A stretch of DNA of 64,000 nt from Verrucomicrobiia bacterium. GTDB taxonomy: Bacteria > Verrucomicrobiota > Verrucomicrobiia > Palsa-1439. Positions 800 through 51,400 of the stretch are shown in pieces. Position numbers and translations under genes: made by a program. Positions within the stretch are counted from its first letter, which is position 1; each line of letters starts with the position of its first letter. Below the pieces are notes generated by a model that searched no databases, was not told the origin of the DNA, and saw nothing but the letters and a program-made list of their open reading frames with translations. Location of the stretch: positions 3,625 to 67,624 of the forward strand of contig JBEKUF010000001.1 in NCBI GenBank assembly GCA_049515295.1. The letters are read 5' to 3'.

Positions 800-1762
800 T
801 TGAAGACAAACCTTCCAGTCAGCACCGCCTCGTTCGCCCTAAGCTTGCTTTTGCTCGCCGCACCGGGAACCGGCCAAGCGGACATCGTTTATGTGACCGA
901 CTCCGGAAGTGACACGATTGAGGAATTCAACTCGGCAGGCACGGGCACGATCTTTGCCACAGCCAGCTCAGGACTCAGCACGCCACAAGGTTTGGCCATT
1001 GATGGTGCAGGCAATCTCTACGTGGCAAATGAAGGAAACAACACCATCGAGAAATTCGACTCGTCGGGAAATGGAACGGTCTTTGCCAGTTCAGGTCTGA
1101 ACAACCCGGGATTTCTGTGTTCTGATAGCAGTGGCCATCTCTACGTGCTGAACGGCGACGGTACTATCGAGAAATTCGACTCCACTGGGAACGGGTCACT
1201 TTTTGCCAGTATCGGGCTGAACATCGACTCGGGCATTACCTGCGACGGTAGCGGCAACGTCTACGTAGTAAGCGATCTCCTTCCTCATAGTGAGCTTACA
1301 GTGCGTAAGATCGACTCCAACGGAAATGCGTCTACTTTTTATAGTATCCTCCTTATCCCGCCCTATCCTTTTCTAGCCTCTGGCGGAATCGCCTTCGACG
1401 GGAACAGTAATCTCTATGTCGCAGCCGATCCATTCTCTGGACTTAATGCGCGATCCGGTGTTATCGAAAGAATCAATTCCGTTGGCGCAGGGTCGCCCTT
1501 CACAAGCTCTGGAGCATCTCCCTTCGGAGCTCTTGCTTTTGGTAGCGATGGCGACCTGTACGCGGTAAGTGGGAGCATTATCGAGGAGTTTGATTCGAGC
1601 GGGAATGGAACACTGTTTGCCTCCGGATTGTTTGACGATGTGGGGATTGCAGTGGAGGCCGTCCCAGAGCCTTCCGCTGCGATGTTGCTCGCCGCCGCCC
1701 TGATCACGCTGCTTCCGTTAATGCGCCGACGGGTCTCTAGCAGCACCCCCGCTTACCGGTAG
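800..1762 (+). CDS. NHL-repeat protein with C-terminal PEP-CTERM sorting signal
   Basis: TTG start with a GGAG 7 nt upstream. Signal peptide (…SLLLLAAPGTGQA). Repeated YV(T/A)xxGxxTIExF(D/N)SxGxG NHL/beta-propeller blades. C-terminus VPEPSAAMLLAAALITLLPLMRRR (PEP motif, TM helix, basic tail) marks an exosortase substrate. Confidence 0.7.
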   Translation: MKTNLPVSTASFALSLLLLAAPGTGQADIVYVTDSGSDTIEEFNSAGTGTIFATASSGLSTPQGLAIDGAGNLYVANEGNNTIEKFDSSGNGTVFASSGLNNPGFLCSDSSGHLYVLNGDGTIEKFDSTGNGSLFASIGLNIDSGITCDGSGNVYVVSDLLPHSELTVRKIDSNGNASTFYSILLIPPYPFLASGGIAFDGNSNLYVAADPFSGLNARSGVIERINSVGAGSPFTSSGASPFGALAFGSDGDLYAVSGSIIEEFDSSGNGTLFASGLFDDVGIAVEAVPEPSAAMLLAAALITLLPLMRRRVSSSTPAYR

Positions 1763-2016
1763 TACCAGCCGCCGCCACGGTAGTAGTAATACCCGCGCGG
1801 TGCGCAATAATACCGATACGCTGGACGCCCGTAGTAGTAGGCCGGTGGCGCGCAATAATAGCCGTAGGCCGGGTAATACGCCGGACCGTAGAAGAACGGG
1901 AACCCAAACCCGACGTTCACAAACACGCGTGCCTGGGCCGGCGCTGACAGCAGACACACCAGCGTCACCACCGCTGCGAAACCACCAAGTGCTTTCAGGA
2001 TTCTTTTCATTTTCAA
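1753..2016 (-). CDS. small secreted Tyr/Gly-rich protein (87 aa, unknown function)
   Basis: GGAGGA sits 6 nt upstream of the ATG. Textbook signal peptide MKMKRILKALGGFAAVVTLVCLLSAPAQA. Mature 58 aa contain about 19 Tyr and two YYCAP(P/R) repeats. Convergent with the NHL gene and overlapping its 3' end. Confidence 0.6.
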   Translation of the reverse strand: MKMKRILKALGGFAAVVTLVCLLSAPAQARVFVNVGFGFPFFYGPAYYPAYGYYCAPPAYYYGRPAYRYYCAPRGYYYYRGGGWYYR

Positions 2017-2106
2017 TCCTCCAACTTACTTGTCCACCTTCACTATATTCCAACACCATTAGACGGCAAATGTGTCGCCCGGGTTACGCCTAAACCGGTG
2101 TAGCGT

Positions 2107-4364: not shown

Positions 4365-4399
4365 GTCATTCTGAGCGCAGCGAAGAATCTCTGTCGTTC
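4365..4399. repeat. short interspersed repeat family B, copy 2
   Basis: gtcattctgagcgcagcgaagaatctctgtcgttc versus gtcaccctgagcgcagcgaagggtctctgtcgttc at 456-490. Confidence 0.6.
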
Positions 4400-4564: not shown

Positions 4565-4975
4565 ATGAGAAGATTACAAGGATTCGTCGTTCTGTCGCTG
4601 CTGCTCGCCGCGCCGCTGGCGTTGCGAGCGCAATCGAACAACCAGACAACGATTGGCGATGTGAAGCAGGCCGGCAAGAACGCCGCCGTGACTGCCGGAC
4701 ATTACACCGAGCAGCAGATCAAGGATCTCAACAAGGCCGCCGAGAAACAGTTCCACGAGCTGGGCAAGAAATTGAATGACCTGAAGTCCAATGCCCAGAC
4801 GCAAACCGGGCAGGCCAAGGCTGACATGGACAAGAAAATCGCCGAAGCCGAAAAGAAAATGGATGATCTCAAGCCGAAGCTGAAGGAACTCAAGACCGCC
4901 ACCACCAACGCTTGGGCCGACGTCAAGTCGGCCTTCGACAACGGAATCAAAGACCTGCAGAAAACGTTCCAGTGA
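4565..4975 (+). CDS. secreted K/E-rich coiled-coil protein (hypothetical)
   Basis: AGGAGG RBS. Signal peptide LLLAAPLALRAQS. The rest is low-complexity Lys/Glu/Ala heptad-like sequence. Confidence 0.55.
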   Translation: MRRLQGFVVLSLLLAAPLALRAQSNNQTTIGDVKQAGKNAAVTAGHYTEQQIKDLNKAAEKQFHELGKKLNDLKSNAQTQTGQAKADMDKKIAEAEKKMDDLKPKLKELKTATTNAWADVKSAFDNGIKDLQKTFQ

Positions 4976-17836: not shown

Positions 17837-19321
17837 TCACATCGCCGCCGGCGTGTTCTTGTCCAACTCCTCCGGTTCTTCGTCCGGTTCTCCCGCCCGA
17901 CTCGAGGCTATGTGAAGCTTGTCCATCTTGTAACGCAGCATTCGCCGGGTGATGTGCAGCGCACGCGCGGCTTCCGTGATCACCCCGTCCGTGCGACGCA
18001 AGGCCTCCTCGATGGCGCGGCGCTCCAGGTCCTCCGTGACCTTCGGCAGGTCCAACCCGGTGTCGTTGAACTCCCATTTCTCCCCCAGATCGACCTGGGG
18101 CGTGGTCGCCGCCAGTCGCGAGGTGATTTGCGCAGTCGCCTGATCCGCCTGTGAAATCACAAACGGCAGGTCTTCCGCGCTGATCTTGGTGGCGTCGCAG
18201 GTAACCAACAAGCGCTCGATGGCGTGCTCCAACTCGCGCACATTGCCCGGCCACGGGTACGACAGCAGTAAGTCCATGGCCGATGGCGAAAATTGCGGGG
18301 CCTCGCGGTTCAATTCCTTGGCAAAGCGCTGCGCGAAATGCAACACCAACTGCGGGATATCGTCTTTGCGGTCGCGCAACGCGGGAACTGTGATCGGCAC
18401 CACGTTGATGCGGTAGTACAGGTCTTCGCGAAACGCGCCCCGGGCAATTTCCTTCTCCAGATCGCGGTTGGTGGCGCACACCAGCCGAACATTGATGCTG
18501 ATCGTTTCCTGGCCACCCACGCGGCGGATTTCGCGCTCCTGGATTGCCCGCAACAGCTTGCTTTGGGTGCCGAGCGGCATCTCGCCAATCTCATCAAGGA
18601 ACAACGTCCCCCCACCTGCCGCCTCGAACATTCCGATGCGCCGCTGCAGCGCGCCTGTAAAGGAGCCCTTCTCATGCCCAAACAACTCGCTTTCCAACAA
18701 CTCGCCGGGAATGGCGGCACAGTGTACGGGAATAAACGGGCCCTCCCGACGGACGCTGTTGTAATGCAGGGCGCGAGCGACGAGCTCCTTGCCCGTGCCC
18801 GTCTCGCCCAGCACCAAAACGGTCGTTTCCGTATCCACAACGCGTTGCACAAGGGCGTAGACCTTTTGCATCGCCGCGCTGGACCCGACAATATTCTCGA
18901 ACTTGCTGACCGCCTGGAGTTCTGTGCGCAACCGGCCCACCTCGCGTTCGAGCGCCTTCTCCTTGAGGATGCGATCCACCACCAACCGAATCTCGTCTAC
19001 ATCGAACGGCTTGTTCAGGTAATCGGCGGCACCCATCTTCATCGCCTGAACGGCCGGTTTGGCTTCGGTGATGGCGGTGACCATAACCACGGGCATCGTC
19101 GGATTGAGCTGCAAAATCTTTGAAAGGACTTCCAGCCCGTCCATGCCGGGCATTTTCATGTCGAGCAGCACGATGTCGAAACGCTCCTCCCGGCCCATCA
19201 CTTCCAACCCGCTGGTACCGTCCCCCATGAGCGTCACATCGTAGCGGTCCTTCAAAATGAACCGTAACGACTCGCGTGGACTCTCCTCGTCGTCAATGAC
19301 CAGAATCCTTGCCTTTGACAT
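17837..19321 (-). CDS. sigma-54-dependent response regulator (NtrC family: REC + AAA+ + HTH)
   Basis: REC (ILVIDDEE…D…K). AAA+ Walker A GETGTGKE. GAFTGA-like ESELFGHEKGSFTGA. C-terminal Fis-type HTH. Confidence 0.85.
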   Translation of the reverse strand: MSKARILVIDDEESPRESLRFILKDRYDVTLMGDGTSGLEVMGREERFDIVLLDMKMPGMDGLEVLSKILQLNPTMPVVMVTAITEAKPAVQAMKMGAADYLNKPFDVDEIRLVVDRILKEKALEREVGRLRTELQAVSKFENIVGSSAAMQKVYALVQRVVDTETTVLVLGETGTGKELVARALHYNSVRREGPFIPVHCAAIPGELLESELFGHEKGSFTGALQRRIGMFEAAGGGTLFLDEIGEMPLGTQSKLLRAIQEREIRRVGGQETISINVRLVCATNRDLEKEIARGAFREDLYYRINVVPITVPALRDRKDDIPQLVLHFAQRFAKELNREAPQFSPSAMDLLLSYPWPGNVRELEHAIERLLVTCDATKISAEDLPFVISQADQATAQITSRLAATTPQVDLGEKWEFNDTGLDLPKVTEDLERRAIEEALRRTDGVITEAARALHITRRMLRYKMDKLHIASSRAGEPDEEPEELDKNTPAAM

Positions 19322-19399
19322 CTGTTTGTCTCCTCCTTCGATCCATTCTCTGTTCCACCTTGTGGCCAACCGGCGACCGCGCCCTCCCCCGGTGCCTCG

Positions 19400-21739
19400 T
19401 CACGGCTGGTCGCTCCGACGGCCAGCGTCCGGATCCCAGCGTTCCGTAACCCGGTTGCGGACGGCGTTGGCTTCGGTTGACGGGGGCGGACCCGCCAAAG
19501 CTTCTGCGCTCAAGCCCTCGCTCAAAACATCGTCGTCCGCGGGTCGCTGGGCTTTGACCGGCACCACCATCGAGACGGTCGTGCCCCGGCCCAGCATGCT
19601 GTCAACGTCCAACCGGCCACCGTGCCGCTCGATGATCTTCTTCACAATCGTCAGCCCCAACCCGACCCCGACGTTGCGCGTGGTCACAAACGGCTCGGTC
19701 ACGCGTTTCAGATTTTCCAAGGCGATTCCCTCGCCCGTGTCCTGCCAATCGATCCGCACGGCACCACCTGCGGGTAGCGTTCCGCCCGGAAAATCCGTCG
19801 GCAGTGCATCGACCGTATTGATCGAGAGCCGGCCACCACGGGGCATGGATTGCACGGCATTCCGCAGCACATGCTCAAACGCCTGCATCAAGCGAATCCG
19901 GTCCCCCTCCAACCGCGCAAACTTGTGGGCGAAATTCTTCTTCACGGTCACCACGGGCGCCGGCGCGGGCTCGGGCGCTTTTTCGCCCACGGCCATTACA
20001 TACGCAATTTGTTTTCGGCTGAATTCCTGGGTCGCGTTCTTGACGCACGTGTCGATCAGGTCGCCCAGCACAATCTCCTCATTGACCAACAGCAACGGAT
20101 GCGCGAAGAACGTCAGATTATTCACCAGCACATCGACTCGGTTCACCTCGTTGGCAACGGTGGTGCTGAACTGCTCGCGAAACTCCTTGTCATCGTGCCG
20201 CTCGGGCAGCAATTGCGCGAAGATCTTGATGGACACCAGCGAGTTCTTCAATTCATGAGACAACCGCGCCGCCAGCCGCGTGAAAAACTCCTTATCGGCC
20301 AATTCGCGGGCCCGAGCCTGCTGCAGGCGGACCTGCGAGAGGTCTTCAATGAGCGCGACCGCGATCAATCCTTCTCCACCCGCCACGTGGCTGTCCGCCC
20401 CCATGTCAAACCGCGTGGCGCTGATGCCGAGCGGGCGATGTCCCCGGGGCAGCACCACTTCTCGCTGACGAATATCCCCGCCCGTCTGCAGGACCTCGAA
20501 CACGACGTCCGCGACCCGGCCCGGCAGCCGCCGGATGTCCTGCCCCACCACGGATTTCTCTTCGATGTCGAGCAATTCACACGCGCGGTGATTCACGGTG
20601 AGGATGCGATTGTTCTGCCCGACCACCACCACACCCGTCTGGACATGCGCCAGCACTTCGTTCACAAAGCGTTGCTGGCTGGCCACGCGCTCGCGCAGAC
20701 GAAGATTGCGAATCGCCTGGGCCAACTGCCCCATCAAGTAGTACACCAGCTCCAATTCCTGGTTGGTCAGTGGCTCTCCCGTGATCTTGCCGCTGAAAGT
20801 CAACACGCCCCACAACTGGTCTTCATCGAAAATCGGCACGGCGACATCGGCCCCGAGCGTATCGAATTCGCGGGCCACTTCCGGATCGTAATCCAGCGCC
20901 AGCGAGTCCGTGACTTGGGCCCGCAGCAGGATCCGCGCTTCGCGCGTCAGATAACTGACAATGCCGGAGTCGGCGCTCAACCGGAAGTGCTCCACCAGGT
21001 GCAGCGCCAGACCGGTGCTGCGAGCGACCACAAATTGTTCACCGCCAGCCGTGGGAGGTCCGGCAAACAGGTCGCTCGGCACCCGTCGGGTGAAAATCGC
21101 TGCCTTGCCGATGCCGAGCAACTCGCGGACGAGACGCAGGAACTCGGACACCAACTCGCCTTCGCTGACATACTGGCTCAGGATTCGCGACAAATCCTTC
21201 AGGGCACCGCGGTACCGGTATGCGTCAAACGCCGGAGCGAGCGACGGCAGGTGGGTCGGAGCCGCCACGGGGCGTGACTGCGAGGCGACCGCCGGCACTG
21301 GAGCTGCGGCCTGTCGCTGACGCGCGATCACGGCATCTGCCCGCTTTAGCTTCGACTGGGCGTCGCGCAATTCGAAAAACGTGCCCAGCGCCTGCTTCAA
21401 ACGGTCAGCAGAATCCACGTCGGAAACGACGAGCCAGTCTTCGGGAACGGAATACAGGGTTTGTTGGGCCGCCGTGGCCCGCATAACAACAGCCTGGTTT
21501 TCCTCTAGGCGCGAGGATGCCAGTGACTCCATCGCCCATCGCGTGGTTTCTCCCAATGAGACAGCGTCCAGGATCACGGCATCCACCAATCGCAACCAAG
21601 TGGAAAACAGGCCGTCGAATCGTTGTCGAGACGGTTCGGACGGCAACGGCAACAAGACGATGTTCGTTTTCTCACCGAGAATGTCCGTGAGAAGTCGCTG
21701 TGTCTCGGCCGAATTGGTCAGTAACAATGCTGTCTTCAT
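19400..21739 (-). CDS. soluble multidomain sensor histidine kinase (receiver-like N-domain, GAF, PAS, HisKA, HATPase)
   Basis: No TM segments. H-box LSHELKNSLVSIKIFAQLLPERHDDKEFREQF. C-terminal HATPase (GVGLGLTIV). Start codon overlaps the upstream ketosynthase stop (ATGA). Confidence 0.8.
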   Translation of the reverse strand: MKTALLLTNSAETQRLLTDILGEKTNIVLLPLPSEPSRQRFDGLFSTWLRLVDAVILDAVSLGETTRWAMESLASSRLEENQAVVMRATAAQQTLYSVPEDWLVVSDVDSADRLKQALGTFFELRDAQSKLKRADAVIARQRQAAAPVPAVASQSRPVAAPTHLPSLAPAFDAYRYRGALKDLSRILSQYVSEGELVSEFLRLVRELLGIGKAAIFTRRVPSDLFAGPPTAGGEQFVVARSTGLALHLVEHFRLSADSGIVSYLTREARILLRAQVTDSLALDYDPEVAREFDTLGADVAVPIFDEDQLWGVLTFSGKITGEPLTNQELELVYYLMGQLAQAIRNLRLRERVASQQRFVNEVLAHVQTGVVVVGQNNRILTVNHRACELLDIEEKSVVGQDIRRLPGRVADVVFEVLQTGGDIRQREVVLPRGHRPLGISATRFDMGADSHVAGGEGLIAVALIEDLSQVRLQQARARELADKEFFTRLAARLSHELKNSLVSIKIFAQLLPERHDDKEFREQFSTTVANEVNRVDVLVNNLTFFAHPLLLVNEEIVLGDLIDTCVKNATQEFSRKQIAYVMAVGEKAPEPAPAPVVTVKKNFAHKFARLEGDRIRLMQAFEHVLRNAVQSMPRGGRLSINTVDALPTDFPGGTLPAGGAVRIDWQDTGEGIALENLKRVTEPFVTTRNVGVGLGLTIVKKIIERHGGRLDVDSMLGRGTTVSMVVPVKAQRPADDDVLSEGLSAEALAGPPPSTEANAVRNRVTERWDPDAGRRSDQP

Positions 21740-23025
21740 AGGCCGCCAGCTTCGCCCCCGCCATTTCGTACGTTGGTCTGACCGTTTCGATATCGTTCGA
21801 CCACCAGGGTGGTGTTGCGCCCCCCGAACCCCAGCGAGTTGCTCACCGCGATGTCGACACGGCGGTGACGCGCCACGTTCGGGACAAAATCCAAATCACA
21901 TTCGGGATCGGGGAATTCGTAATTGATGGTCGGCGGGATAACATTGTCGCGGATGGCCAGGCAACAAGCTCCCAGCTCCACGGCGCCGCATGCGCCTTGC
22001 ATGTGCCCCAGTGCCGCCTTGATCGAGCTGATGGGCAGATCGTATGCCCGGTCTCCAAAAGCTTTCTTTATGACGGTGGTTTCCGCGCGATCCCCCAATG
22101 GCGTTGACGTGCCGTGGGCATTCAGGTAGTCCACCTGCTCCGGCCGCACGCCGGCCCGCGCCAGGGCTGTTCGCACGCAACGCACGGCCTGCGTCCCCTC
22201 GGGGTCGGGCTGACACATGTGGTAGGCGTCGCACGTGGACGCCCACCCAGTCAATTCCCCATGGATGCGGGCCTTGCGTTGCAACGCATGTTCCAACTCC
22301 TCGACCACTAGGACACCCGCGCCTTCGGACATGACGAATCCATCGCGCTTTTGGTCGAATGGCCGTGACGCGTGTGCCGGTTCATCATTTCGCGAGGACA
22401 TCGCGTGGCTGGTGCCGACCGCCGCCACAACGATCGGGTGAACCGGCGCTTCCGCCCCGCCAGCCAACATGACGTCCACATCACCAGCCACAATCATGTC
22501 GGCAGCCTGTGCAATGGCCGCACTGGCGCAGTCGCAACCGGTGGCAATCGTGAAACTGGGGGCGTGCAATCCAAAGTGCAGTGAAACCTGTCCACCACAC
22601 GACCCCGTGAACACGGCGATGCTGGTGTAGGCGCTCATGGCATCGAAGCCCCGCGTCTTAAACGTATCGTACTCCTGGCAGGCGAATCCCCAGCCCGCGT
22701 ACGCCGTACCCAGCGCCAAACCGATACGTTCGCGCGCCTCTTTCTCAAGTTTCAACCCGGCATCCGTAATCGCGATGTACGACGCCACAAGACCAAAGTG
22801 GGCAAAGCGATCCATGCGCCGCACGTCCTTGCGACTGATCCAATCCTCGGGACGAAAATCGCGCACCTCACCGGCAACTTTCCACGGGCAGTCGGAGTTC
22901 ATCAATGCGGGAGAAAGAGCCACGCCGGACTTTCCCGCGAGAATATTCGACCAAAACGGCTCGGTGCCAATCCCCAACGGCGTCAGCAATCCAATTCCCG
23001 TAATGACAACTCGACGTCTCTTCAT
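21736..23025 (-). CDS. free-standing beta-ketoacyl synthase (FabF-like, KAS II family)
   Basis: VVITGIGLLTPLG N-terminus, active-site Cys region (TIATGCDCASAA), His-His pair (YLNAHGTSTPLGD, ALGHMQGACG), C-terminal SNSLGFGGRNT. Start refined to 23023-23025. Confidence 0.8.
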   Translation of the reverse strand: MKRRRVVITGIGLLTPLGIGTEPFWSNILAGKSGVALSPALMNSDCPWKVAGEVRDFRPEDWISRKDVRRMDRFAHFGLVASYIAITDAGLKLEKEARERIGLALGTAYAGWGFACQEYDTFKTRGFDAMSAYTSIAVFTGSCGGQVSLHFGLHAPSFTIATGCDCASAAIAQAADMIVAGDVDVMLAGGAEAPVHPIVVAAVGTSHAMSSRNDEPAHASRPFDQKRDGFVMSEGAGVLVVEELEHALQRKARIHGELTGWASTCDAYHMCQPDPEGTQAVRCVRTALARAGVRPEQVDYLNAHGTSTPLGDRAETTVIKKAFGDRAYDLPISSIKAALGHMQGACGAVELGACCLAIRDNVIPPTINYEFPDPECDLDFVPNVARHRRVDIAVSNSLGFGGRNTTLVVERYRNGQTNVRNGGGEAGGL

Positions 23026-23192
23026 CAATAACACCTGTAGTACACGTAGACGAGGGACAAAATCGTCCGCCCGCGTCAGCGCGTACGACGCGTGCCTCCT
23101 CCAAACAGGTTCCCCACACCACAGATTATACAAGGATTGCCCATAGTGTAAAGCACTTATTTGATCGGTTGGACAATTTTGTCCGGCAGGCC

Positions 23193-41210: not shown

Positions 41211-41656
41211 GCGTGCGCACCGAGAGTTCCATCGTCATCAAGGCCCCGCTGGCCAGGGTTTTCCAGGATACGTCCAATTTGCTTCTCTGGCCAAAGGTGC
41301 TTCCCCACTATCGCTGGATCCGCGTTCTGAACGTGGGGGATGATGGCCTCGTTGTGAAAATGGGGGCGTGCCGCGGCTGGCTGCCCATTCGATGGACCTG
41401 TCGATTTCAGGTCGACCCGAGCAGGCCGGAACTGCACTTTGAGCATCTCAAGGCGTTCACGCGCGGGATGAAGGTCCGATGGACGTACACCGCCACCCCC
41501 GACGGCGTGTTGGTCAGCATCACTCATGAACTCAATCGACCTTCCGCGTTTGGACGCTGGTTCGCGCAGCGTGTGCTGAGTGAAATGTTCATTCAGCCAA
41601 TTGCCGCTCGCACGTTGTCCCATTTCAAGAAGTACCTGGAACAGAACGAGGGCTGA
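41207..41656 (+). CDS. SRPBCC (Bet v1/START, polyketide cyclase/dehydrase-like) protein
   Basis: 149 aa, …VIKAPLARVFQDTSNLLLWPK… start and helix-grip pattern. Overlaps the methyltransferase by 4 nt. Confidence 0.6.
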   Translation: MSVRTESSIVIKAPLARVFQDTSNLLLWPKVLPHYRWIRVLNVGDDGLVVKMGACRGWLPIRWTCRFQVDPSRPELHFEHLKAFTRGMKVRWTYTATPDGVLVSITHELNRPSAFGRWFAQRVLSEMFIQPIAARTLSHFKKYLEQNEG

Positions 41657-41669
41657 GCACTCCCAATGT

Positions 41670-42932
41670 ATGGAAGCCATGTCACCACGCGTGGTCGTCA
41701 CCGGCATCGGGGCAATAACGGCCATCGGCAGCGGCCGAGACGGGCTGTGGCGCGGAATTTTGCGCGGCAAGTCCGGCATCCGCCCTATCGCCCACTTCGA
41801 TCCGTCACCGTTTGACTCCCAAATCGCCGGTGAGGTGACCGATTTCGACCCGTTGGCGTATTTCCCGGCGCGGCGTGTGAAACGCCTCGACCGGTTCGCC
41901 CAGTTCGCCCTCGTAGCCGCGAAAATGGCCCTCGACGATTCGAACGAGTGTGGCCGGCCGTTGTTCACGGAACGGCCTCCCCTCCCGCAGATCGGCGTCT
42001 GCACCGGCACGGCGTTGGGCGGTGTGGCGCTGGCCGAGCACCAACATGAGTTATTCATGCGTCAGGGCATCCGTGCGGTGAATCCGGCACTGGCATTTCT
42101 CGTGTTCGGCGGCTCCGGCGGTTCCCATGTCGCAATCGAACTTGGCTTCACCGGACCGGGTCACACGAATTCGAACAGTTGCGGCTCCGGTGCGATCGCG
42201 CTGGGAGAAGCGTTCCGCTTGATCCGGGGAGGTCAGGCACTGGCGATGGTAGCCGGCGCGGCCGAAGCGCCGTTGGCGCCGTTGACGTTTGGCGCGTTTG
42301 ACGTGCTCCACGCCCTGAGCCGGAACAACGCCGACCCGGCCGGGGCCTGTCGGCCATTTGATGCGACGCGCGACGGATTCGTTATGGGTGAAGGAGCGGC
42401 GATGTTCATACTCGAAGAGCGCCGCCATGCCCTCTTGCGCGGAGCGCATATCTATGCCGAGATCCTCGGCTACGCTTCCAACAATGACGCCTATCACATG
42501 CTGGCGCCCCGCCCCGACGCGTCCTGCGCGGCGCGCTGCATCCGCAACGCGCTGGCAGACGCGCGTGTTTCTCCGGCGGACATCGATTACATCAATGCCC
42601 ACGCCACGGGCACGGCACTCGGGGATGCCGCGGAAACGCTCGCCATCAAACAGGTGTTCGGCGAGCGCGCCCATCGGATCCCCGTCAGTTCCACCAAACC
42701 GTTTCACGCCCACGCGCTGGGCGCGTCGGGCGCGATGGAGATGGCCCTATGCGCCCTGGCGCTGGAGCACGATTACCTGCCGCCGACCCTGAACCTGAGG
42801 CAGCCCGATCCCGAGTGTGATCTGGATTACATTCCCAACGAAGGTCGGCGGGCACGGGTGAACCACGTTGTATCGAACAGCTTCGGCTTTGGCGGCATCA
42901 ATGCCAGCCTTGTTCTTGGCCGTCATGAGTGA
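41670..42932 (+). CDS. beta-ketoacyl synthase, FabF-like
   Basis: VVVTGIGAITAIG; Cys region TNSNSCGSGAIALGEA; His-His pair (YINAHATGT, HAHALGASG); C-terminal SNSFGFGGINASLVL. Confidence 0.8.
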   Translation: MEAMSPRVVVTGIGAITAIGSGRDGLWRGILRGKSGIRPIAHFDPSPFDSQIAGEVTDFDPLAYFPARRVKRLDRFAQFALVAAKMALDDSNECGRPLFTERPPLPQIGVCTGTALGGVALAEHQHELFMRQGIRAVNPALAFLVFGGSGGSHVAIELGFTGPGHTNSNSCGSGAIALGEAFRLIRGGQALAMVAGAAEAPLAPLTFGAFDVLHALSRNNADPAGACRPFDATRDGFVMGEGAAMFILEERRHALLRGAHIYAEILGYASNNDAYHMLAPRPDASCAARCIRNALADARVSPADIDYINAHATGTALGDAAETLAIKQVFGERAHRIPVSSTKPFHAHALGASGAMEMALCALALEHDYLPPTLNLRQPDPECDLDYIPNEGRRARVNHVVSNSFGFGGINASLVLGRHE

Positions 42933-44031
42933 ATTCGACGTGATCGTGGTCGGTGGCGGGCCGGCCGGCGCGGCGGCGGCCGCGGGTTGTGCGCAACGGG
43001 GATTGCGCGTCGCGCTGTTCGAGCACGCCCGGTTTCCCCGCCATAAGGTCTGTGGTGATGTTCTCAATCCGAATTGCTGGCCGATCTTCGAACGACTCGG
43101 CGTGGCGCGGAGAATCCAGCAGTTGCCACATCACGCGATTGAGGGCGCCTGTTTCACCACAACAGGCCGTCACACTCTCAGTGTCCCTCTGCCGCACACG
43201 ACGGTAGCCATCCGCCGCAGTCTACTGGACGCGGCGTTGCTCGATCACGCCGGGTCGTGTGGAGTGCATGTCATGGAAGGCGAAACGGTCCACGACGTCC
43301 TGACCAACGGACGCGTGCGAACCAGCCACGGGGAATACGTGGCCCGAAATGCCATTATCGGTGCTGACGGACGGCATTCGGTGGTTGCACGCAAAGCCGG
43401 TCTGGCCCGTTTCCGGCGCCGAGGCAACGAACATGTGGCGTTCCAATCGCATTTCCGGGCACCGACGACGCTGGATCACCGCGTGCAATTACACCTGTAC
43501 CGGGGCGGCTACTGCGGTCTGGTGCGCGTGGACACGGAGCGCGCCAATCTTTGCATCGTGACCGGCCCATGGGCTGCCCAATTCCACCGTGACTGCGAAG
43601 CGCTCTTTGCGCACACCGTCTGGCAGAACCCCCATTTCCGTGAGTTGGGAATTGCTCCCGAACCACTCGAATCTCTGCGAATCGCTCATCCACTCCAGGC
43701 ACCGGCCTGCCGTGCAACCGGACACGGGGTCTTCCTTGCCGGCGACGCGCTACGGGTGATGGAACCCTTCACGGGTCAGGGGATCTTCTTGGCATTGCGA
43801 ACAGGAGAGCTCGTAGCGGAAGCCATCAGTGATCATTCTCACAGCGAGCGTCTGTATGCGACCGCGGTGGCGAGACTATACCGGCAACGTGGCCGCACCA
43901 ACACATGCCTGCGTCACGCGATGTACCGAGAGCGGGCCGCGCGCGCCATCATCCCGCTCGTGCAACACGCGCCCCAACTGGCACGCTGGCTTGCTGACAA
44001 CGTTCTTGGCGGCGATACGGGATTTCGGTAG
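42925..44031 (+). CDS. FAD-dependent oxidoreductase (geranylgeranyl-reductase/monooxygenase family)
   Basis: N-terminal DVIVVGGGPAGAAAA (GxGxxG), GD motif VFLAGDALRVMEPFTGQGI. Overlaps the ketosynthase by 8 nt. Confidence 0.7.
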   Translation: MSEFDVIVVGGGPAGAAAAAGCAQRGLRVALFEHARFPRHKVCGDVLNPNCWPIFERLGVARRIQQLPHHAIEGACFTTTGRHTLSVPLPHTTVAIRRSLLDAALLDHAGSCGVHVMEGETVHDVLTNGRVRTSHGEYVARNAIIGADGRHSVVARKAGLARFRRRGNEHVAFQSHFRAPTTLDHRVQLHLYRGGYCGLVRVDTERANLCIVTGPWAAQFHRDCEALFAHTVWQNPHFRELGIAPEPLESLRIAHPLQAPACRATGHGVFLAGDALRVMEPFTGQGIFLALRTGELVAEAISDHSHSERLYATAVARLYRQRGRTNTCLRHAMYRERAARAIIPLVQHAPQLARWLADNVLGGDTGFR

Positions 44032-45993: not shown

Positions 45994-48222
45994 TTACGGG
46001 CTGGTAACCGTGATCTTCAGCTTGCCGTATTGGCCAACCGGGCCTTCCCCGACGATGTAGAACGTGTTGGTCCCGTCCGTGTTGAAACTGAGTTGCACTC
46101 CTTCGTTGCCGATGTTGTTATCCGCACAGGCCACTTCGGTGAGGCCGTTACTTCCGCAGGAACCCGTCCAAACGTCCAGCATCGTGTAGAAATTGCTCCC
46201 CGCCGTGGATACGGTGAACTGCCTTCCGTTGATACCGACGGTCGGGATGATTTGCCACACGGCATCCGGACCACCGCCGCCGGGACCCCCGCTGCTGCCC
46301 AGGCATATCGTCGAGGGCGGCATATTGTTCGTGTAGGAGTTCAGGCTGACACTTGCCGTGAACACGGCCCTGGCAAATGGGTCGGAACTGTTCGGGAACA
46401 CCACGACCTGGGCCGCTGCGCAGGAGTCGTTAACACCGGGACACGTGGCTTGTAGCATCGGGTCCTGGGAGATTTGCTTCAATGTGATTTTGTTGGTTTC
46501 GGTGCCAGATACGATGGGAATCTTGCCCGTCTGTGCGTTGCATTCCAGCAGCCCGTTTGGCAGATTGTTGGTCACGCCGCTGTTGTTGAATTTCTTGAGG
46601 AGCGCGGTCATGGTATTAATGGCCACGGGATCGTAGCCGGCGCCAACTGTTTGGGCCTGTGAGATCAAGTCGGGCGGAAAATTCGTCGTGACTTTACCGT
46701 TGAGGTATGTCGCATTGCCCGGGAAGGTGCCAAACAACGAGGCGTTAGCCGTGGCAGCGATCAATTCCACCGCCAACTTTTTTCGCGCCACACACAATGC
46801 GGAAGCCCTGAGCTTCGCAGCCTGTGAACCTCCGGGCTCACCAGTCACCCCGGTCGATCTCCAGTAGAAGCTGAGCGCCTCGATAAGGGTGTCGTAGGCG
46901 TCGATCACGTTGTCCGCGTTGCGGTCGGCCGTGGGCAGGACGGTAAATCCGAGGTTCATCACGCTGCCATTGGCCTGAATGGCGTTCAGCAGCGTGGCGC
47001 AATTCGTGTCCGTAAGAGAGAACCCATGGGTAAACCAAAAACGCGAGTTTCGCGTAACCACCTGGGTACTGGCCGTACTAGTCAGGCTGACATCCAGAGC
47101 GGACAGCACCGCCCCGATGGGATTGGCAAAGACGTTCTCACCAATTGAGTCTCCGGCAAACAGCAGGCCCACGGCATTGTTGTCGGCGTCGACAACCGGC
47201 GACCCCGAGTCCCCCGGCAAAGCGAACGCGTTTGTCGCAATGATCGGTTGAACCAGGATCTGATTGGTGAAAATCCCTGTCCCGCAGGTGGTGGTGCAGG
47301 GGGACGGTTCCGAATAGTCAACCGCGATTGTCATATTGATCCCGGCCACGATCCCTTCGGTGCAATCCGTGGTTCGCCCGTTTTTTCTGACGAACTGCCC
47401 GATGAAGGCGGGGACGACATTGTTCACCTGCGGCCCGAGATTCAGAATGTTGGCGGATATGGCCGCATCGGAGCATTGAACGTAGCCGCAGTCAACCTCA
47501 TTGTCTGCGAGGCCGGAAAAATCGATTGGGACGGTTCGGACAAGGGTGCCAATGTTCTGGCCCGGGTTGCAATTGACATCTACCGCACCGGGTTGATACT
47601 CCGGCGTGCCAAAGGGCGCCGTGCTCGGGCATCCATCGACGCCATGACCGACGACGTGGTTGTTGCTAATCCAACCGATCGCGCCGCTGGCGTTATCACG
47701 GACTTTGAACCCGATGGTGCCGCTGGCGCAACAGCCGCCAAACAGGAGCGCATTCCCTCCCGAAACCCCCAGTGGCACGGGGAGAGGGTACGCAATCTGA
47801 GGGTTGTTTGCCCCGCATTGCTCGGCGTGGATCACTCCCACCACCACCACCTGCACCGGAAAACCGTCCAAGCTGCTCGGCAGCAGAGCCGCAGTATTTG
47901 TATTATCGACGAGCACCAGCAGCGACAAGCTTTCGCCTGACCCGCCGATGCCGATCCCTTTCACGCCTTCGGTTGCGAGAAGCGCCGGTTGGTTTGCCGC
48001 TTGCACCGCCATCGCCCTGCCCAAATCCGGGTTGTACGGGAACGGTTGGAGAGATTGTGCGTCGGAAGTTGTCCCGCAGACCCCCAGGACTGCGATGAAC
48101 CCACAGACCAGCAAAGTCAGTACACGAATGCTGTTACGCTCCGACCGCCGCTTGTTGAGAACATCGGGTTGGCGCACGGTCAATTTCTCTTCCCGGTTCC
48201 TACATATGCGCATTCGTTTCAT
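45994..48222 (-). CDS. secreted multidomain protein with trypsin-fold (S1, alpha-lytic-like) serine protease domain
   Basis: Signal peptide (…IRVLTLLVCGFIAVLGVCG). His (…WISNNHVVGHG…) and catalytic-Ser motif ALPGDSGSPVV. About 400-aa C-terminal region of unknown fold. Start uncertain (48222, 48213, or an internal GTG). Confidence 0.65.
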   Translation of the reverse strand: MKRMRICRNREEKLTVRQPDVLNKRRSERNSIRVLTLLVCGFIAVLGVCGTTSDAQSLQPFPYNPDLGRAMAVQAANQPALLATEGVKGIGIGGSGESLSLLVLVDNTNTAALLPSSLDGFPVQVVVVGVIHAEQCGANNPQIAYPLPVPLGVSGGNALLFGGCCASGTIGFKVRDNASGAIGWISNNHVVGHGVDGCPSTAPFGTPEYQPGAVDVNCNPGQNIGTLVRTVPIDFSGLADNEVDCGYVQCSDAAISANILNLGPQVNNVVPAFIGQFVRKNGRTTDCTEGIVAGINMTIAVDYSEPSPCTTTCGTGIFTNQILVQPIIATNAFALPGDSGSPVVDADNNAVGLLFAGDSIGENVFANPIGAVLSALDVSLTSTASTQVVTRNSRFWFTHGFSLTDTNCATLLNAIQANGSVMNLGFTVLPTADRNADNVIDAYDTLIEALSFYWRSTGVTGEPGGSQAAKLRASALCVARKKLAVELIAATANASLFGTFPGNATYLNGKVTTNFPPDLISQAQTVGAGYDPVAINTMTALLKKFNNSGVTNNLPNGLLECNAQTGKIPIVSGTETNKITLKQISQDPMLQATCPGVNDSCAAAQVVVFPNSSDPFARAVFTASVSLNSYTNNMPPSTICLGSSGGPGGGGPDAVWQIIPTVGINGRQFTVSTAGSNFYTMLDVWTGSCGSNGLTEVACADNNIGNEGVQLSFNTDGTNTFYIVGEGPVGQYGKLKITVTSP

Positions 48223-48484
48223 ACAAGCCTCCAAAGATCCACGCATCCGCACCCACCACGAGGCTTCAGCGGCTGCCCGATACATGGTTCCGCTGGCACT
48301 CCCGTGGCGATCAGCCTTTTCACCCCATCGGTCATGCTTCTCACGGCCGTTCCTCTCATAGCTCCAAATCCCTTCACGAAAGAAGAAAGAATCAATCGTA
48401 GTCTGCCTCGTCTTCCAACCGGGCTGTCGACGATGCCGCCCGGTTTTCCGATGGCCGGCGCCAAGCCTTTCCATTGGTCCGGGC

Positions 48485-51400
48485 CTACTTCGCCAACGCC
48501 GTTATTCGCACCGTGTCTTGCTGCGCTGTGTCGCTGACCGATGTGAATGTCAATGTGAAGGTCGCCTGGGTCCCCTTCTTCACGAGGGTCTTGTCCGCGA
48601 ACACTTCCGCTCGAATCATCGTCGAATCCCCCGTGACCGCCCCCGTTTCCATCGCAGCGGTTTCATAGGTTCCCGCCTGGACCGCAGTTGTTATATCCAT
48701 GCTTTCGGACGGGTTCGCGCCAATGTAGTAATTCACCGTCCAGCCCGAGCCCCCGCTGACTTGCGTACTCTGCACTGTGAACTGGTCGGGCCCTGAACCG
48801 TCGTTCTCCACAGCCACATAGTACCTCACGCCATGTCTGCCCTTCTCAATAGCCTTCTGAATAGCAGTGGGCGTCTGCAGATTGATATTTTGAACAATTT
48901 CCTGTCCGACGCCGGTCGTGTTGATGACGCCAAAGCCCACGAACTTCTTCAAATTACTAAACGACTTGCTAATCGCGGCATCCGGCTGACTGAGCGCTCC
49001 CATGCCGCTCAGGGACACCAGTTGGGGCGGCAGAATATTGTTGCTGCTGATAATGGACAAAGTGGCCGACCGCAGCCCTCCAGCCGTGGGAGCAAACTTC
49101 AGACTAACCACGCAGGTGGCGCCGCTTGAAATCGTCGTGCATGGCGTGGAAACAACAAGGAAATCACCCGTATTTCCCGCCGTGGTGGCAATGTTGCTGA
49201 TCACCAGCGGAGCGGTTCCGCAATTCGTGATCGTCACGCTCTGCACCGATCCGGTGACATTCACGGCGACACTGCCAAAGTCTATCGAACTGCTGCTGAG
49301 GCAGATGGCGGGCGCAGGCGCGACGCCGACGCCCTGCAGTGTCACCGTGGTCGGACTGCCCGCCGCGTCATCCGCGATGACAAGATTCGCGTGAAAAGCC
49401 CCTGCGACCGTTGGAGCAAACGCCACGTTCATCGTGCAAGTGCCCTCAACAGAAATGGGCGAGTTCGTACAAAGCGTCGCCACTGAGAAATTCGCCGACC
49501 CCGCTCCGCTGATCGTCACACCGGAAACGGTCAGCGGGATCGAACCGCAATTCGTGAGGGTAACGCTCTGCACGCTGCCGGTTGTCCCGATCACTTGGTT
49601 GGAGAAGGTAATCGACGTGCCGGTACTCAGGCACACCAGTGGAGCCGGTGCCGTCGCGTAGCCGGTCAAGGGGATGCTGCGCGGACTGCCGGTCTGGTTG
49701 TCCGTAAACACCAAATTCGCCACCAACGTCCCCACATCGTTGGTCACCGGTGAAAATGCCACAGTCACGAAGCAATCGGCCCCCGGACCCACGCGTCCGC
49801 CCGTACAGCCGTCATTAACAACCGTGAAGTCAGCCGCGTTCGACCCAGTGATCGACACGCTTTGGATGCTTGCCCCGACAGTCGTACCGTTCATATAGGT
49901 GACGACCTGTTGGGTGCTGACGGTGCCGGCAACCTGGCTGCCGAACGTCAAACTCGTGGGAGAAATCGTGATCGGCACCGTGCCTGGTGGCACGTTCACG
50001 TTGAGCACCATGGTCCCGCCGTCGCCGTCGTTTTGCGGCTCGACCACGATATAATAATCGTTTGACCCATCCGCCGTGAAGTTGACCTGGGCCGGCACGC
50101 TATTGGTGGATACGACCTCCGTCAGCGCCCCACAGTCGCCACGCACATTGAGCGCCTCCGGAAGCACCTTCACTTCCCAGACTGACAATAGCGGGGGCCC
50201 GCCGGAAAACGAACTGCCAAGCGTGCTAATGGTGAACACGGCACCGGGAGTCGGCAATGCAATCTTGAAGAATTCGTCGGCACCACCACGCCCCGCCGTG
50301 GGACTGGGCTGCACGTTTCGGTAGACCGCCTTCGTGAGATTGTTCGTGAACGCAAACGGGAATTGCGTGACGGGCATGGCGGTCTGGCAGGCGTTGTTGG
50401 TCGCCAGATTCGGAACGTCGGACAGCGTATTGGTCGCCGCGTTGTAAATGACCAGGGCAAAATCCTGATTGAGGGTGTTGGACCCGCCCGGCGTCGGCTC
50501 GCCCACATTCGGCACGCCCTGGCCCGCAATATTCGCGGCGCGCACGATGACCTGGAACGGGGCACCGGACGTCACTCCGGGAATGCCGTTGAGCAGTGTG
50601 GACGGATTCAAGAACACACTCTGCAGGTTGTTGATGGTGTCGATTCGGGAATTGGCTGTCGACACGTTCTCGAAAAACTGGTTGCCATTGTAGATGGCGG
50701 CATTCGAGCCGGCTCCGAGGGTCACCTGCAAATTAAGGTCGTTGACGAGTTGATTGCTGGCCGAAGCCGCCGGGTTGCCGGGTGGGTCGAGCCACACCAG
50801 CGTCACGCGGAACGGTAAGCCGTTGCTGGCGATCCGGCCGGTGACTTCGTAAGACTGCCCCGACTGGCTGAAGTACGTCTGCTGCGGCGCGGGATTCGTG
50901 GCGATGAGGGGCGTGTCAATCGCTCGCGGGGAACTCTCATCCCGAATCGCCCGAGGCACCCCGTCAAACATCGTGGCCAAATCCAGTTCGCCCATGCCCT
51001 GGGCAATGGAGGGCAGGGTGTCCAGTGTTCCGGGATACTGAGGACTTTGAATCGGCATATATCGGGCTGCGTTGCACAGGTAGGCCTTGGCCATGGCCGG
51101 GCTGGGCTGCAGCAATGCGCTGCCGAGTTCGTTCGTCAGTCGATGCTGGAAATACCACCACAGAAGCTGGATCGCCCCGGAAACCTCCGGTGCCGCATAA
51201 CTGCTGCCGGAATCGCAGTCGTACTCCCCGCCTATGGGACTTGGAAAACTGTCGGGAAACGACGCACTAGTATTGGTGAAACAAGCGTCAAAGAGCTTGG
51301 GCGGACTACAGTAAAGATTCGTCTCCGAACAGGAAAACACCGCCCCGCCGCCAAGAACCCCATTAGGGTCCTCGTTTATTACAGGTATGATTCCAAGCAC

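Follow-up and report, generated by a model that had tools for sequence, protein, structure and literature searches.

The window, that is, the whole stretch of 64,000 nucleotides analysed, carries on its minus strand at 1753..2010 a gene for a Tyr-rich precursor of 85 amino acids, delimited from ORF calls, from in-frame conservation in 12 orthologous loci and from substitutions dominated by the third codon position. The gene ends in a TAA stop codon (1753-1755), is present as a single copy and is the sole Tyr-rich ORF of the 64-kb window. The NCBI entry for its product is MGA2602590.1 ('hypothetical protein ABSG14_00030'), annotated as a CDS. The minus-strand ORF spans 1753-2016 when counted from a TTG at 2016, the limits given in an initial annotation of this DNA; the ORF itself was found as described, but its true start is, judging from the upstream sequence, the ATG at 2010 and not the TTG, because the Shine-Dalgarno sequence GGAGGA (2017..2022, minus strand) lies 6 nt before the ATG but directly abuts the TTG. 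The strong Shine-Dalgarno sequence noted earlier was thereby located, and GGAGG is found in the same place, 5-8 nt 5' of the ATG, in all orthologous loci.

A promoter scan and the alignment of 12 upstream regions delimited a conserved upstream block, GGGCGACACATTTGCCGTCTAATGGTGTTGGAATATAGTGAAGG, at 2036..2081 (minus strand). The block contains a sigma-70-like motif, TTGCCG-16-TATAGT (2069-2042), suggesting that the gene probably has its own promoter. A sigma-54 reading of the block (GGC-N8-TTGC) was also considered; the -12 GC is missing in L003, L008 and L009 of the 12 aligned regions. An Rfam scan of 1400-2500 gave nothing meaningful. Short Logan/JGI contigs carrying the gene were considered as possible transcripts; assembly breaks are likelier, close to a repeat in the intergenic DNA that lies some 130-160 nt 5' of the ATG.

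The convergent neighbour, on the plus strand at 800..1762, encodes an NHL-repeat protein (PF01436, E = 3.8e-10) with a PEP-CTERM-like tail, and its stop end overlaps the Tyr-rich gene by 10 bp, tail to tail. The overlap and the NHL repeats had both been described correctly, but the PEP-CTERM tail (VPEP, a hydrophobic stretch and RRR, seen by eye) gave an HMM match below threshold (E = 5-7). The NHL gene is not a conserved partner: it is found in only four of the 12 orthologous loci, and is 43% identical where present. The Tyr-rich protein has neither a PEP motif nor a C-terminal transmembrane segment, and neither the loci examined nor the window's 20 largest ORFs showed an exosortase. With no sorting domain of its own, a neighbour in so few loci and no exosortase, its assignment to a PEP-CTERM/exosortase system was rejected, and the association suggested earlier was not supported.

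Conservation and neighbourhood of the gene

Forty-two homologues of 69-126 aa were found in peat and soil Verrucomicrobiia MAGs (11 species-level genomes). Across the 12 orthologous loci the Shine-Dalgarno sequence, start and stop are kept and every indel is in frame; substitutions at the three codon positions numbered 715, 705 and 2039, an approximately 3-fold excess at the third position. Pairwise dN/dS values were 0.03-0.25 (about 0.1), in the signal peptide and the mature part alike; between L008 and L009 the mature parts show 13 synonymous changes and not a single non-synonymous one. Purifying selection acts on the segment 1753-2010 (minus strand), which is a genuine protein-coding gene and keeps the same syntenic place in a peat/soil Verrucomicrobiia clade.

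The initial annotation had allowed that the ORF might be an antisense artefact if it proved unconserved in related genomes. The ORF is indeed short, of low complexity, and overlaps three other ORFs in a region of 59% GC, but a spurious ORF on non-coding or antisense DNA is refuted, with practically no probability left to it, by the conservation described above. In addition, GC3 is highest in the Tyr-rich frame (0.69 versus 0.47-0.48 in two overlapping alternative ORFs), and the overlap with another gene amounts to only 10 bp.

Two genes for sugar-ABC permeases upstream and one of the alanine dehydrogenase family downstream are its constant neighbours. With the ABC permeases always in front of the gene, a role connected with transport is conceivable, and the product could assist the sugar ABC importer next to it from the periplasm, binding or modulating the two BPD_transp_1 permeases: in 12/12 orthologous loci, a divergent subclade included, the two permease genes directly precede it on the same strand, and for the distant relative L021 an SBP-permease-permease operon is found about 2.2 kb upstream. 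However, synteny extends over the entire region (hisC ... permeases ... AlaDH ... rpoN), so that the adjacency may be plain vertical inheritance, and plain synteny is what the constant neighbours look like. Moreover, the promoter-like block and, in 8 of the 12 loci, an unrelated ORF separate the gene from the permeases, and the three other distant relatives have unrelated neighbours, which leaves the accessory role quite unlikely. The intervening ORF, of 270 aa and cytoplasmic, was rejected as a partner since it lacks both a signal peptide and a Pfam match and is missing from the window. No neighbour was common to the four distant relatives examined.

The exported peptide

The first 27 residues (1930..2010, minus strand) have the pattern of a signal peptide, with a charged n-region (MKRILK), an h-region, ALGGFAAVVTLVCLLS, of 16 hydrophobic residues, within the usual 10-20, and a c-region (APAQA) in which, by inspection, the -3/-1 Ala rule is satisfied; the predicted SPase I cut is AQA|R. 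This is in agreement with the model Sec signal peptide ending in AQA described previously. The segment is at least 90% conserved across the 43 members, and AF2 models a helix at residues 2-32. Sec export with SPase I cleavage after AQA is thus predicted from the sequence pattern. A lipoprotein (SPase II) was considered and rejected, because the h-region does not end in a lipobox, [LVI][ASTVI][GAS]C: the sole Cys of the signal peptide belongs to T-L-V-C-L-L, with Val at -1, and precedes the AQA site by 8 residues, and its context is A-A-V-C in most close orthologues. Attachment of the C-terminus to peptidoglycan as in Braun's lipoprotein was rejected as well, the conserved last residue being Arg and not Lys, and unconserved in the wider class.

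The mature part comprises 58 residues (Y18 G9 P7 R6 A6 F5 V3 C2 N1 W1), with a mass of 7.05 kDa and a pI of 9.4. Its 18 Tyr make up 31%, in agreement with the 58-aa, one-third Tyr product described earlier, and the median Tyr fraction in the family is 0.32. The alphabet is restricted to 10 residue types (41% aromatic, 10% Arg, 38% Gly, Pro and Ala together), with no Asp, Glu, Lys, Ser or Thr. With the 43-sequence alignment, AF2 gave a mean pLDDT of 52 and a pTM of 0.25, with residues 29-71 below 50 and a weak beta-hairpin at residues 75-84; having no confident AF2 fold and a strongly reduced residue alphabet, the peptide is predicted to be an intrinsically disordered, low-complexity protein. 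The initial annotation's reading of a genuine small gene with an extreme Tyr-rich, non-enzymatic make-up is supported.

A small peptide of net positive charge, without acidic residues, highly aromatic, with a signal peptide and encoded by a stand-alone gene might also be a Sec-exported cationic antimicrobial or bacteriocin-like peptide that attacks the membranes of competing cells, much as animal Gly/Tyr-rich antimicrobial peptides do. This is unlikely: no immunity, export or regulatory gene is linked to it in the 12 orthologous and four distant loci, a diderm producer would need an extra step across the outer membrane, and bacteriocins are usually accessory, patchy and fast-evolving, whereas this gene keeps its syntenic position in at least 11 species under purifying selection.

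Two parts can be distinguished in the mature peptide. The N-terminal block RVFVNVGFGFPFFYGPAYYP (1870..1929, minus strand) is hydrophobic and beta-prone and constitutes the family signature; its RVFVNVGFGFP-FYGPAYYP segment is the most conserved of the mature part. The first 13 mature residues, RVFVNVGFGFPFF, include three Val and five Phe, so the statement that hydrophobic residues other than Tyr were almost lacking had to be corrected. The remainder (1756..1869, minus strand) is a Tyr/Pro/Gly/Arg low-complexity tail which includes a duplicated 16-aa unit and the C-terminal YYYYRGGGWYYR. The internal tandem duplication extends over 1783..1872 (minus strand), with copies at 1783-1824 and 1831-1872 and two PAYxYYCAP..YYY units, PAYGYYCAPPAYYYGR and PAYRYYCAPRGYYYYR; it is also seen in the DNA as a direct repeat with a 48-nt period and 71% identity.

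Exactly two Cys are found in the duplicated unit of this protein, as had been observed, but the weight previously placed on them and on YYCAP was not sustained by the homologues. The consensus at this site is YYYAP, the 43 members have 0-5 Cys with no parity (five members have none), Cys and Tyr interchange freely and no Cys position is conserved. The Cys would be incidental Tyr-to-Cys (TAY to TGY) variants rather than required cross-link sites. The same data bear on the earlier idea of a RiPP-like precursor with Cys or Tyr modified by a dedicated maturase. The peptide is small, with a Cys-containing repeat, and some RiPP precursors, such as the bufferins, are described as bearing Sec signal peptides (10.1101/2024.03.18.585515). 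However, no Cys of a core is conserved, the entire mature peptide and not merely a core is of low complexity, and no rSAM, MNIO/DUF692, YcaO, cyclase, protease or exporter gene, nor any maturase-type Pfam domain, adjoins the gene in the window, in the 12 orthologous loci or in the loci of the four distant relatives, which share no neighbour. Membership among RiPP precursors was accordingly rejected as highly improbable.

Relatives of the Tyr-rich protein

No Pfam or NCBIfam match was obtained for the Tyr-rich protein, and a PDB sequence search gave nothing beyond a 16-bit match, due to chance, with a viral glycoprotein. No paper on the family was found in the literature on PXPV proteins, on Tyr-rich periplasmic, small or Verrucomicrobia proteins, or on periplasmic dityrosine.

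A profile search retrieved 148 representatives at E < 1e-3, with the common arrangement SP-AxA|RVFVGxGFGxP-FYGPxYYPPP. An independent profile built from 24 of these 148 retrieved 707 clusters and regained the Verrucomicrobiia proteins at about 1e-13; the resulting set of at least 700 unannotated clusters, defined at 90% identity, is mostly from Alphaproteobacteria. When only the mature parts were scored with an HMM, real sequences had a median of 28 bits and composition-matched shuffles a median of -13.6 and a maximum of 14.7. The similarity to the distant class is order-specific and is carried mostly by the N-terminal mature block.

The protein has the features of this exported RVFVGxGFGxP / Tyr-Pro-rich class as defined in this analysis: the AxA end, the head motif, FYGPxYYP and the Tyr/Pro-rich continuation. 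It shares with the class, as yet unnamed and represented in Acetobacteraceae, Stellaceae and many metagenomic clusters, the AxA|R boundary, which aligns despite N-termini of differing length, as well as reciprocal profile matches. Most members of the class are longer (110-135 aa), with an added C-terminal module that may be a 4-Cys CYAGPYVCPMD..CYCLGNGGQRVWGRAN, a 17-kDa-antigen-like C..C or a RHRYWRHHRWYWY tail, whereas the Verrucomicrobiia protein is a minimal form ending in YYYYRGGGWYYR. From these sequence comparisons the protein appears to belong to a new, uncurated family spanning Verrucomicrobiia and acid-tolerant Alphaproteobacteria.

The nearest named likeness is to the PXPV proteins (PF12778), which are small, exported and proteobacterial and have no assigned function. 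The general plan is common to both: a length of about 90-120 aa, a signal peptide for Sec, then, just after the cleavage site, a strand like G-V-x-V-G-(V/I)-x-I-G-V-P, and Pro/Tyr/Val low-complexity repeats followed by a basic aromatic C-terminus. The repeats of the Tyr-rich protein are, however, YY(G/A)P / PAYYY and not PxPVYV, it has far more Tyr, and it gave no match even at E <= 10 (the PF12778 gathering score is 23.1 bits), so membership was rejected. Two weak matches of the family profile, the remote neighbours P0160 and P0185, are bona fide PXPV proteins, and they alone pass the PF12778 threshold.

As to habitat, the Verrucomicrobiia carriers come from SPRUCE, palsa and Danish soils MAGs, and those distant carriers that have a name belong to acidophilic or acid-tolerant Acetobacteraceae (Rhodopila, Acidocella). 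All of the homologues are from MAGs or metagenomes. The peat and soil origin, the acid tolerance and the extreme Tyr density could fit an envelope buffer that binds metals, phenolics or radicals in acidic peat, by chelation of Fe(III) or Al(III), binding of humic or lignin phenolics or quenching of oxidants. This purely speculative function is very unlikely, since His, Asp and Glu are all absent from the peptide as ligands, the loci examined show no linkage to metal-homeostasis genes, and the habitat pattern may be sampling bias.

Possible role in the cell envelope

Judged by composition only, the structural or adhesive role first suggested in the initial annotation is still the most reasonable reading. 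By analogy, we tentatively propose, as a possibility still short of an even chance, that the protein is a Sec-exported, self-associating Tyr/Arg 'sticker-spacer' peptide of the envelope, without enzymatic function. The released product would be a cationic (six Arg), disordered peptide of 58 residues and 7 kDa in the periplasm or cell envelope, made up of a short hydrophobic, beta-prone head and a tail of almost only Tyr, Arg, Gly, Pro and Ala. Through Tyr-Tyr pi-stacking and Tyr-Arg cation-pi contacts it could condense, coat or glue envelope components, with anionic lipopolysaccharide, peptidoglycan and exopolysaccharide as candidate partners, and the head may serve as an anchoring or nucleating strand. 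Oxidative cross-linking of Tyr might harden the material; it is without genomic support here, because the window's 20 largest ORFs include no tyrosinase, laccase or peroxidase.

Plant extensins and GRPs are comparable Tyr-rich secreted wall proteins. Mussels and diatoms likewise use Tyr-rich secreted proteins as adhesive or wall material (PMC4220933), and the mussel primers mfp-3 and mfp-5, rich in Arg and in Tyr/Dopa, coacervate and adhere (PMC9705477). Small size, secretion, positive charge, disorder and a wealth of Tyr, Gly, Pro and Arg are traits that mfp-3, mfp-5 and the diatom protein AC3362 have in common with the peptide as predicted here, and the mussel proteins act by cation-pi and aromatic contacts, coacervation and oxidative Tyr/Dopa chemistry (PMC9705477, PMC4220933). 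The likeness to mussel proteins and extensins is an analogy of composition only, with no sequence homology, and the present peptide belongs to a bacterial host and, as predicted, to a periplasmic or envelope compartment; to the Dopa/dityrosine cross-linked adhesives, too, it matches by composition only, with no oxidase partner in the window. Among bacteria, the sulfur globule envelope proteins SgpA/B/C are Gly/Tyr-rich and repetitive. In Allochromatium vinosum they form the small, Sec-exported structural coat of an extracytoplasmic inclusion (PMC10386293). The comparison with SgpA/B/C is by description, and the carriers studied here are not known sulfur oxidisers and have no sulfur-oxidation genes nearby.

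The position-specific purifying selection (dN/dS about 0.1) is somewhat stronger than would be expected from bulk composition alone, which hints at a specific partner for the Tyr-rich peptide. A more extended form of the sticker-spacer proposal, rather unlikely as a whole, would make the protein the minimal member of the large uncurated family, in which the head anchors or nucleates a Tyr/Pro/Arg sticker tail to give a condensate-like or oxidatively cross-linked periplasmic or surface layer, possibly as an adaptation to acidic, phenolic-rich peat.

The family data correct the RiPP, PEP-CTERM and disulfide readings, which were tempting but unsupported. At minimum, a 'hypothetical protein' becomes part of a definable family with a clear signature motif, and the family would lend itself to curation as a new domain of unknown function. 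Should the proposed role be true, there would be a widespread, unnamed class of tiny exported Tyr/Arg-rich peptides which build or glue the envelope without enzymes, a bacterial counterpart of the mussel-foot, extensin or glycine-rich structural proteins. Biomaterials that adhere or coacervate could then be modelled on such peptides as very short templates from nature, and the mechanics of the envelope would be concerned too, as would the way in which microbes of peat and soil aggregate and adhere.

The small gene and its predicted product

The Tyr-rich small protein (85 aa) is encoded on the minus strand at 1753–2010 of the window. The ORF caller's start was a TTG at 2016, directly abutted by GGAGGA at 2017–2022; since this GGAGGA lies 6 nt upstream of an ATG at 2010, and GGAGG is found 5–8 nt ahead of the same ATG in every orthologous locus, the ATG was taken as the start. 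The gene was already annotated as a hypothetical protein (MGA2602590.1, 'hypothetical protein ABSG14_00030'). It is the sole Tyr-rich ORF of the 64-kb window, in which no paralogue was found, and its stop overlaps by 10 bp that of a convergent NHL-repeat gene (800–1762, plus strand).

The precursor consists of MKRILKALGGFAAVVTLVCLLSAPAQA followed by RVFVNVGFGFPFFYGPAYYPAYGYYCAPPAYYYGRPAYRYYCAPRGYYYYRGGGWYYR, with the predicted cleavage point between them. The N-terminus showed the tripartite organisation of a Sec signal peptide, positions −3 and −1 both being Ala, and inspection of the signal peptide revealed no lipobox; we infer Sec export and cleavage between AQA and R. The predicted mature peptide (58 aa, 7.05 kDa, pI 9.4) contains only ten residue types (Y18, G9, P7, R6, A6, F5, V3, C2, N1 and W1), with 31% Tyr, 41% aromatic and zero acidic residues. 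Its duplicated 16-aa unit is also visible in the DNA as a direct repeat (1783–1824 and 1831–1872, period 48 nt, 71% identity). An AlphaFold2 model based on a 43-sequence alignment (mean pLDDT 52, pTM 0.25) placed a helix in the signal peptide and a weak C-terminal beta-hairpin in YYYYRGGGWYYR; pLDDT stayed under 50 across residues 29–71. No relative was found by a PDB sequence search, and the mature peptide is best described as intrinsically disordered and of low complexity.

A database search gave 42 homologues, mostly of 80–90 aa and all labelled 'hypothetical'; those bearing organism names were all from Verrucomicrobiia MAGs. Within the species-representative genome set, 11 peat and soil MAGs (SPRUCE, palsa, Danish soils) carry the gene. 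In a codon alignment of 12 orthologues every indel was in frame, differences by codon position were 715/705/2039, and pairwise dN/dS was 0.03–0.25 for the signal peptide and mature part alike. In the mature region two of these loci, L008 and L009, are separated by 13 synonymous changes and not one non-synonymous change. GC3 was 0.69 in the frame of the small gene versus 0.47–0.48 in two overlapping alternative ORFs. The gene is shown to be real, selected and stand-alone, with a canonical export signal. A spurious ORF, for which the initial annotation had considered an antisense artefact, has a negligible probability and is refuted by the homologues, in-frame indels, codon-position bias, dN/dS and GC3.

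Conserved and variable parts

Among the 43 sequences conservation was strongest in the signal peptide and in the opening ~20 residues of the mature part (RVFVNVGFGFP-FYGPAYYP, the head); this V/F-rich mature N-terminus contradicts the earlier statement that the product has almost no hydrophobic residues other than Tyr. Conservation of the signal peptide is at least that of the mature peptide, which is unusual, and a Cys at its residue 19 (window about 1954–1956), within the h-region VCLL and outside any lipobox, is near-invariant family-wide.

The emphasis formerly placed on two Cys in YYCAP motifs did not hold. The family consensus at this site is YYYAP, Tyr and Cys being interchanged by a single TAY-to-TGY transition, and the mature part contains 0 (5 members), 1 (12), 2 (12), 3 (10), 4 (1) or 5 Cys (3), without parity preference among the 43 members. 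Because Cys is unconserved and its counts show no such preference, a required disulfide or Cys-based modification appears unlikely. In homologues P0022, P0045, P0047 and P0050 the signal peptide and head motif are intact and are followed by a shift to a different reading frame (P0022 ends ...GPRRIGIITVRAGITITGADAGTYR), a pattern suggestive of pseudogenisation or of indel errors in the repeat rich in Tyr codons.

Genomic context and upstream region

Two sugar-ABC permease genes (BPD_transp_1) precede the small gene, on its own strand, in 12/12 orthologous loci; in 11 of the 12 an alanine-dehydrogenase/PNT-family gene is found a few genes further downstream, in the opposite orientation. The entire region is syntenic across these loci, which accounts for the adjacency of the permeases, and a function as their accessory factor is quite unlikely. 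An antimicrobial peptide is unlikely, as immunity and export genes were not found in the 12 orthologous or four distant loci and the locus is fixed and core-like. The suggested PEP-CTERM link was not borne out: the NHL/PEP-CTERM-like gene occurs in only 4 of the 12 loci, is only 43% identical to other species' copies, and no exosortase adjoins. No rSAM, MNIO, YcaO, exosortase, tyrosinase, laccase or peroxidase gene adjoins the small gene in any locus or is found among the window's 20 largest ORFs. With no adjoining maturase and unconserved Cys, the RiPP precursor proposed initially is highly improbable.

In 8/12 orthologous loci the second permease and the small gene are separated by a 270-aa cytoplasmic ORF that matches no Pfam family (L001, 7098–7910; equivalents in L003, L008, L009, L010, L011, L012 and L013). 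It is missing from the L006/L016/L017 clade and from the window strain, which has in its place a 298-bp spacer with a REP-like element. Upstream of the permease pair, and divergent from it, most orthologous loci also encode a conserved protein (136 aa; 4565–4975, plus strand, in the window) that has a signal peptide and a weakly apolipoprotein-like coiled-coil region and belongs to no significant Pfam family.

Alignment A2 and a promoter scan revealed a conserved upstream block of ~45 nt (2036–2081, minus strand) holding a sigma-70-like TTGCCG-16-TATAGT, which suggests that the small gene may have its own promoter; the region gave no Rfam match. The block also contains an imperfect inverted repeat, CGACACC..N13..GGTGTTG, and a GGC-N8-TTGC resembling a sigma-54 −24/−12 promoter, the −12 GC being unconserved in three species. 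The same strain carries rpoN ~5 kb from the small gene (L026), and a sigma-54 activator is encoded at 17837–19369. Two short intergenic repeats, at 347–370 and 2143–2166 and at 462–484 and 4371–4393, are both present in two copies within the first 5 kb, against 0 expected by chance, and look REP/MITE-like (one hairpin-forming, GCGACCATGTCGTGCCCAGGTCGC; the other CTGAGCGCAGCGAAGRRTCTCTG). One of the copies precedes the small gene by ~130–160 nt, close to the break points of several short metagenomic contigs.

Elsewhere in the window, three separate beta-ketoacyl synthase genes and an FAD-dependent monooxygenase-type gene adjoining the second (21736–23133, minus strand; 41580–42932, 42868–44031 and 60648–61925, plus strand) may belong to a pathway for specialised lipids, aryl polyenes or pigments. 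A 1682-aa protein (48485–53533, minus strand) combines a subtilase (Peptidase_S8) with ASH/HYDIN-type Ig-like domains and DUF1573, and its gene is adjoined by an 826-aa ORF (45994–48474) without Pfam match.

The wider family and its possible role

When 1.84 billion representatives were searched with a profile of the 43 sequences, 148 matched at E < 1e-3, only 10 of them below 1e-10. The distant matches share a signal peptide ending AxA, R-V-F-V-G-x-G-F-G-x-P, FYGPxYYPPPxYY and a variable C-terminus. An independent profile, built from 24 distant matches and zero Verrucomicrobiia proteins, gave 707 clusters, all 'hypothetical' and none with a Pfam domain, and in turn matched the Verrucomicrobiia proteins at about 1e-13. 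Longer relatives carry one of three C-terminal modules (4-Cys, 17-kDa-antigen-like, or an RHRYW-type basic aromatic tail). As a composition control, all signal peptides were cut and the distant mature parts were made into an HMM, which was run on the Verrucomicrobiia mature parts and 50 shuffles of each. Real sequences had a median of 28 bits, falling to 4.3 once the first 13 residues were removed, against a median of −13.6 for the shuffles (maximum 14.7); the order-specific element common to both groups is therefore the head motif. These searches show an uncurated family, defined by the head motif and a Tyr/Pro-rich tail, for which no Pfam or NCBIfam model and no literature were found. No common neighbour was detected among four distant members examined, or between these and the window locus.

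The Verrucomicrobiia carriers are all peat or soil MAGs, and the few named members of the 707 clusters are Alphaproteobacteria that favour or tolerate acid (Rhodopila globiformis, Acidocella and other Acetobacteraceae, and Stellaceae), which may reflect a link to acidic, phenolic-rich environments or sampling bias. A metal, phenolic or radical buffer tied to acidic habitats is speculative and very unlikely.

The small protein is of a known general sort, the small exported low-complexity proteins, such as PXPV-repeat proteins (PF12778); a few remote family-profile matches are true PF12778 members, whereas the window protein itself has no match to this model. Its tail is nearly all Tyr and Arg, with Gly/Pro/Ala spacers between. 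Tyr and Arg are the two strongest 'sticker' residues. This sticker–spacer make-up points, tentatively, to a non-enzymatic envelope material that could self-associate or bind polyanions, in which the hydrophobic head might act as an anchoring or nucleating strand. The mussel primers mfp-3 and mfp-5, rich in Arg and in Tyr/Dopa, act in such a sticker fashion (PMC9705477), mussels and diatoms use secreted Tyr-rich proteins as adhesives or wall proteins (PMC4220933), and Allochromatium sulfur globules are coated by small Sec-exported structural proteins (PMC10386293). By analogy, the 'structural or adhesive peptide' of the initial annotation seems a reasonable reading; its observation of a tyrosine-rich small protein was largely right, and its YYCAP/Cys, RiPP and PEP-CTERM elements found no support. 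The main value of the finding lies in a new family that can be defined, is unusual in composition and prompts a testable hypothesis of the materials type.
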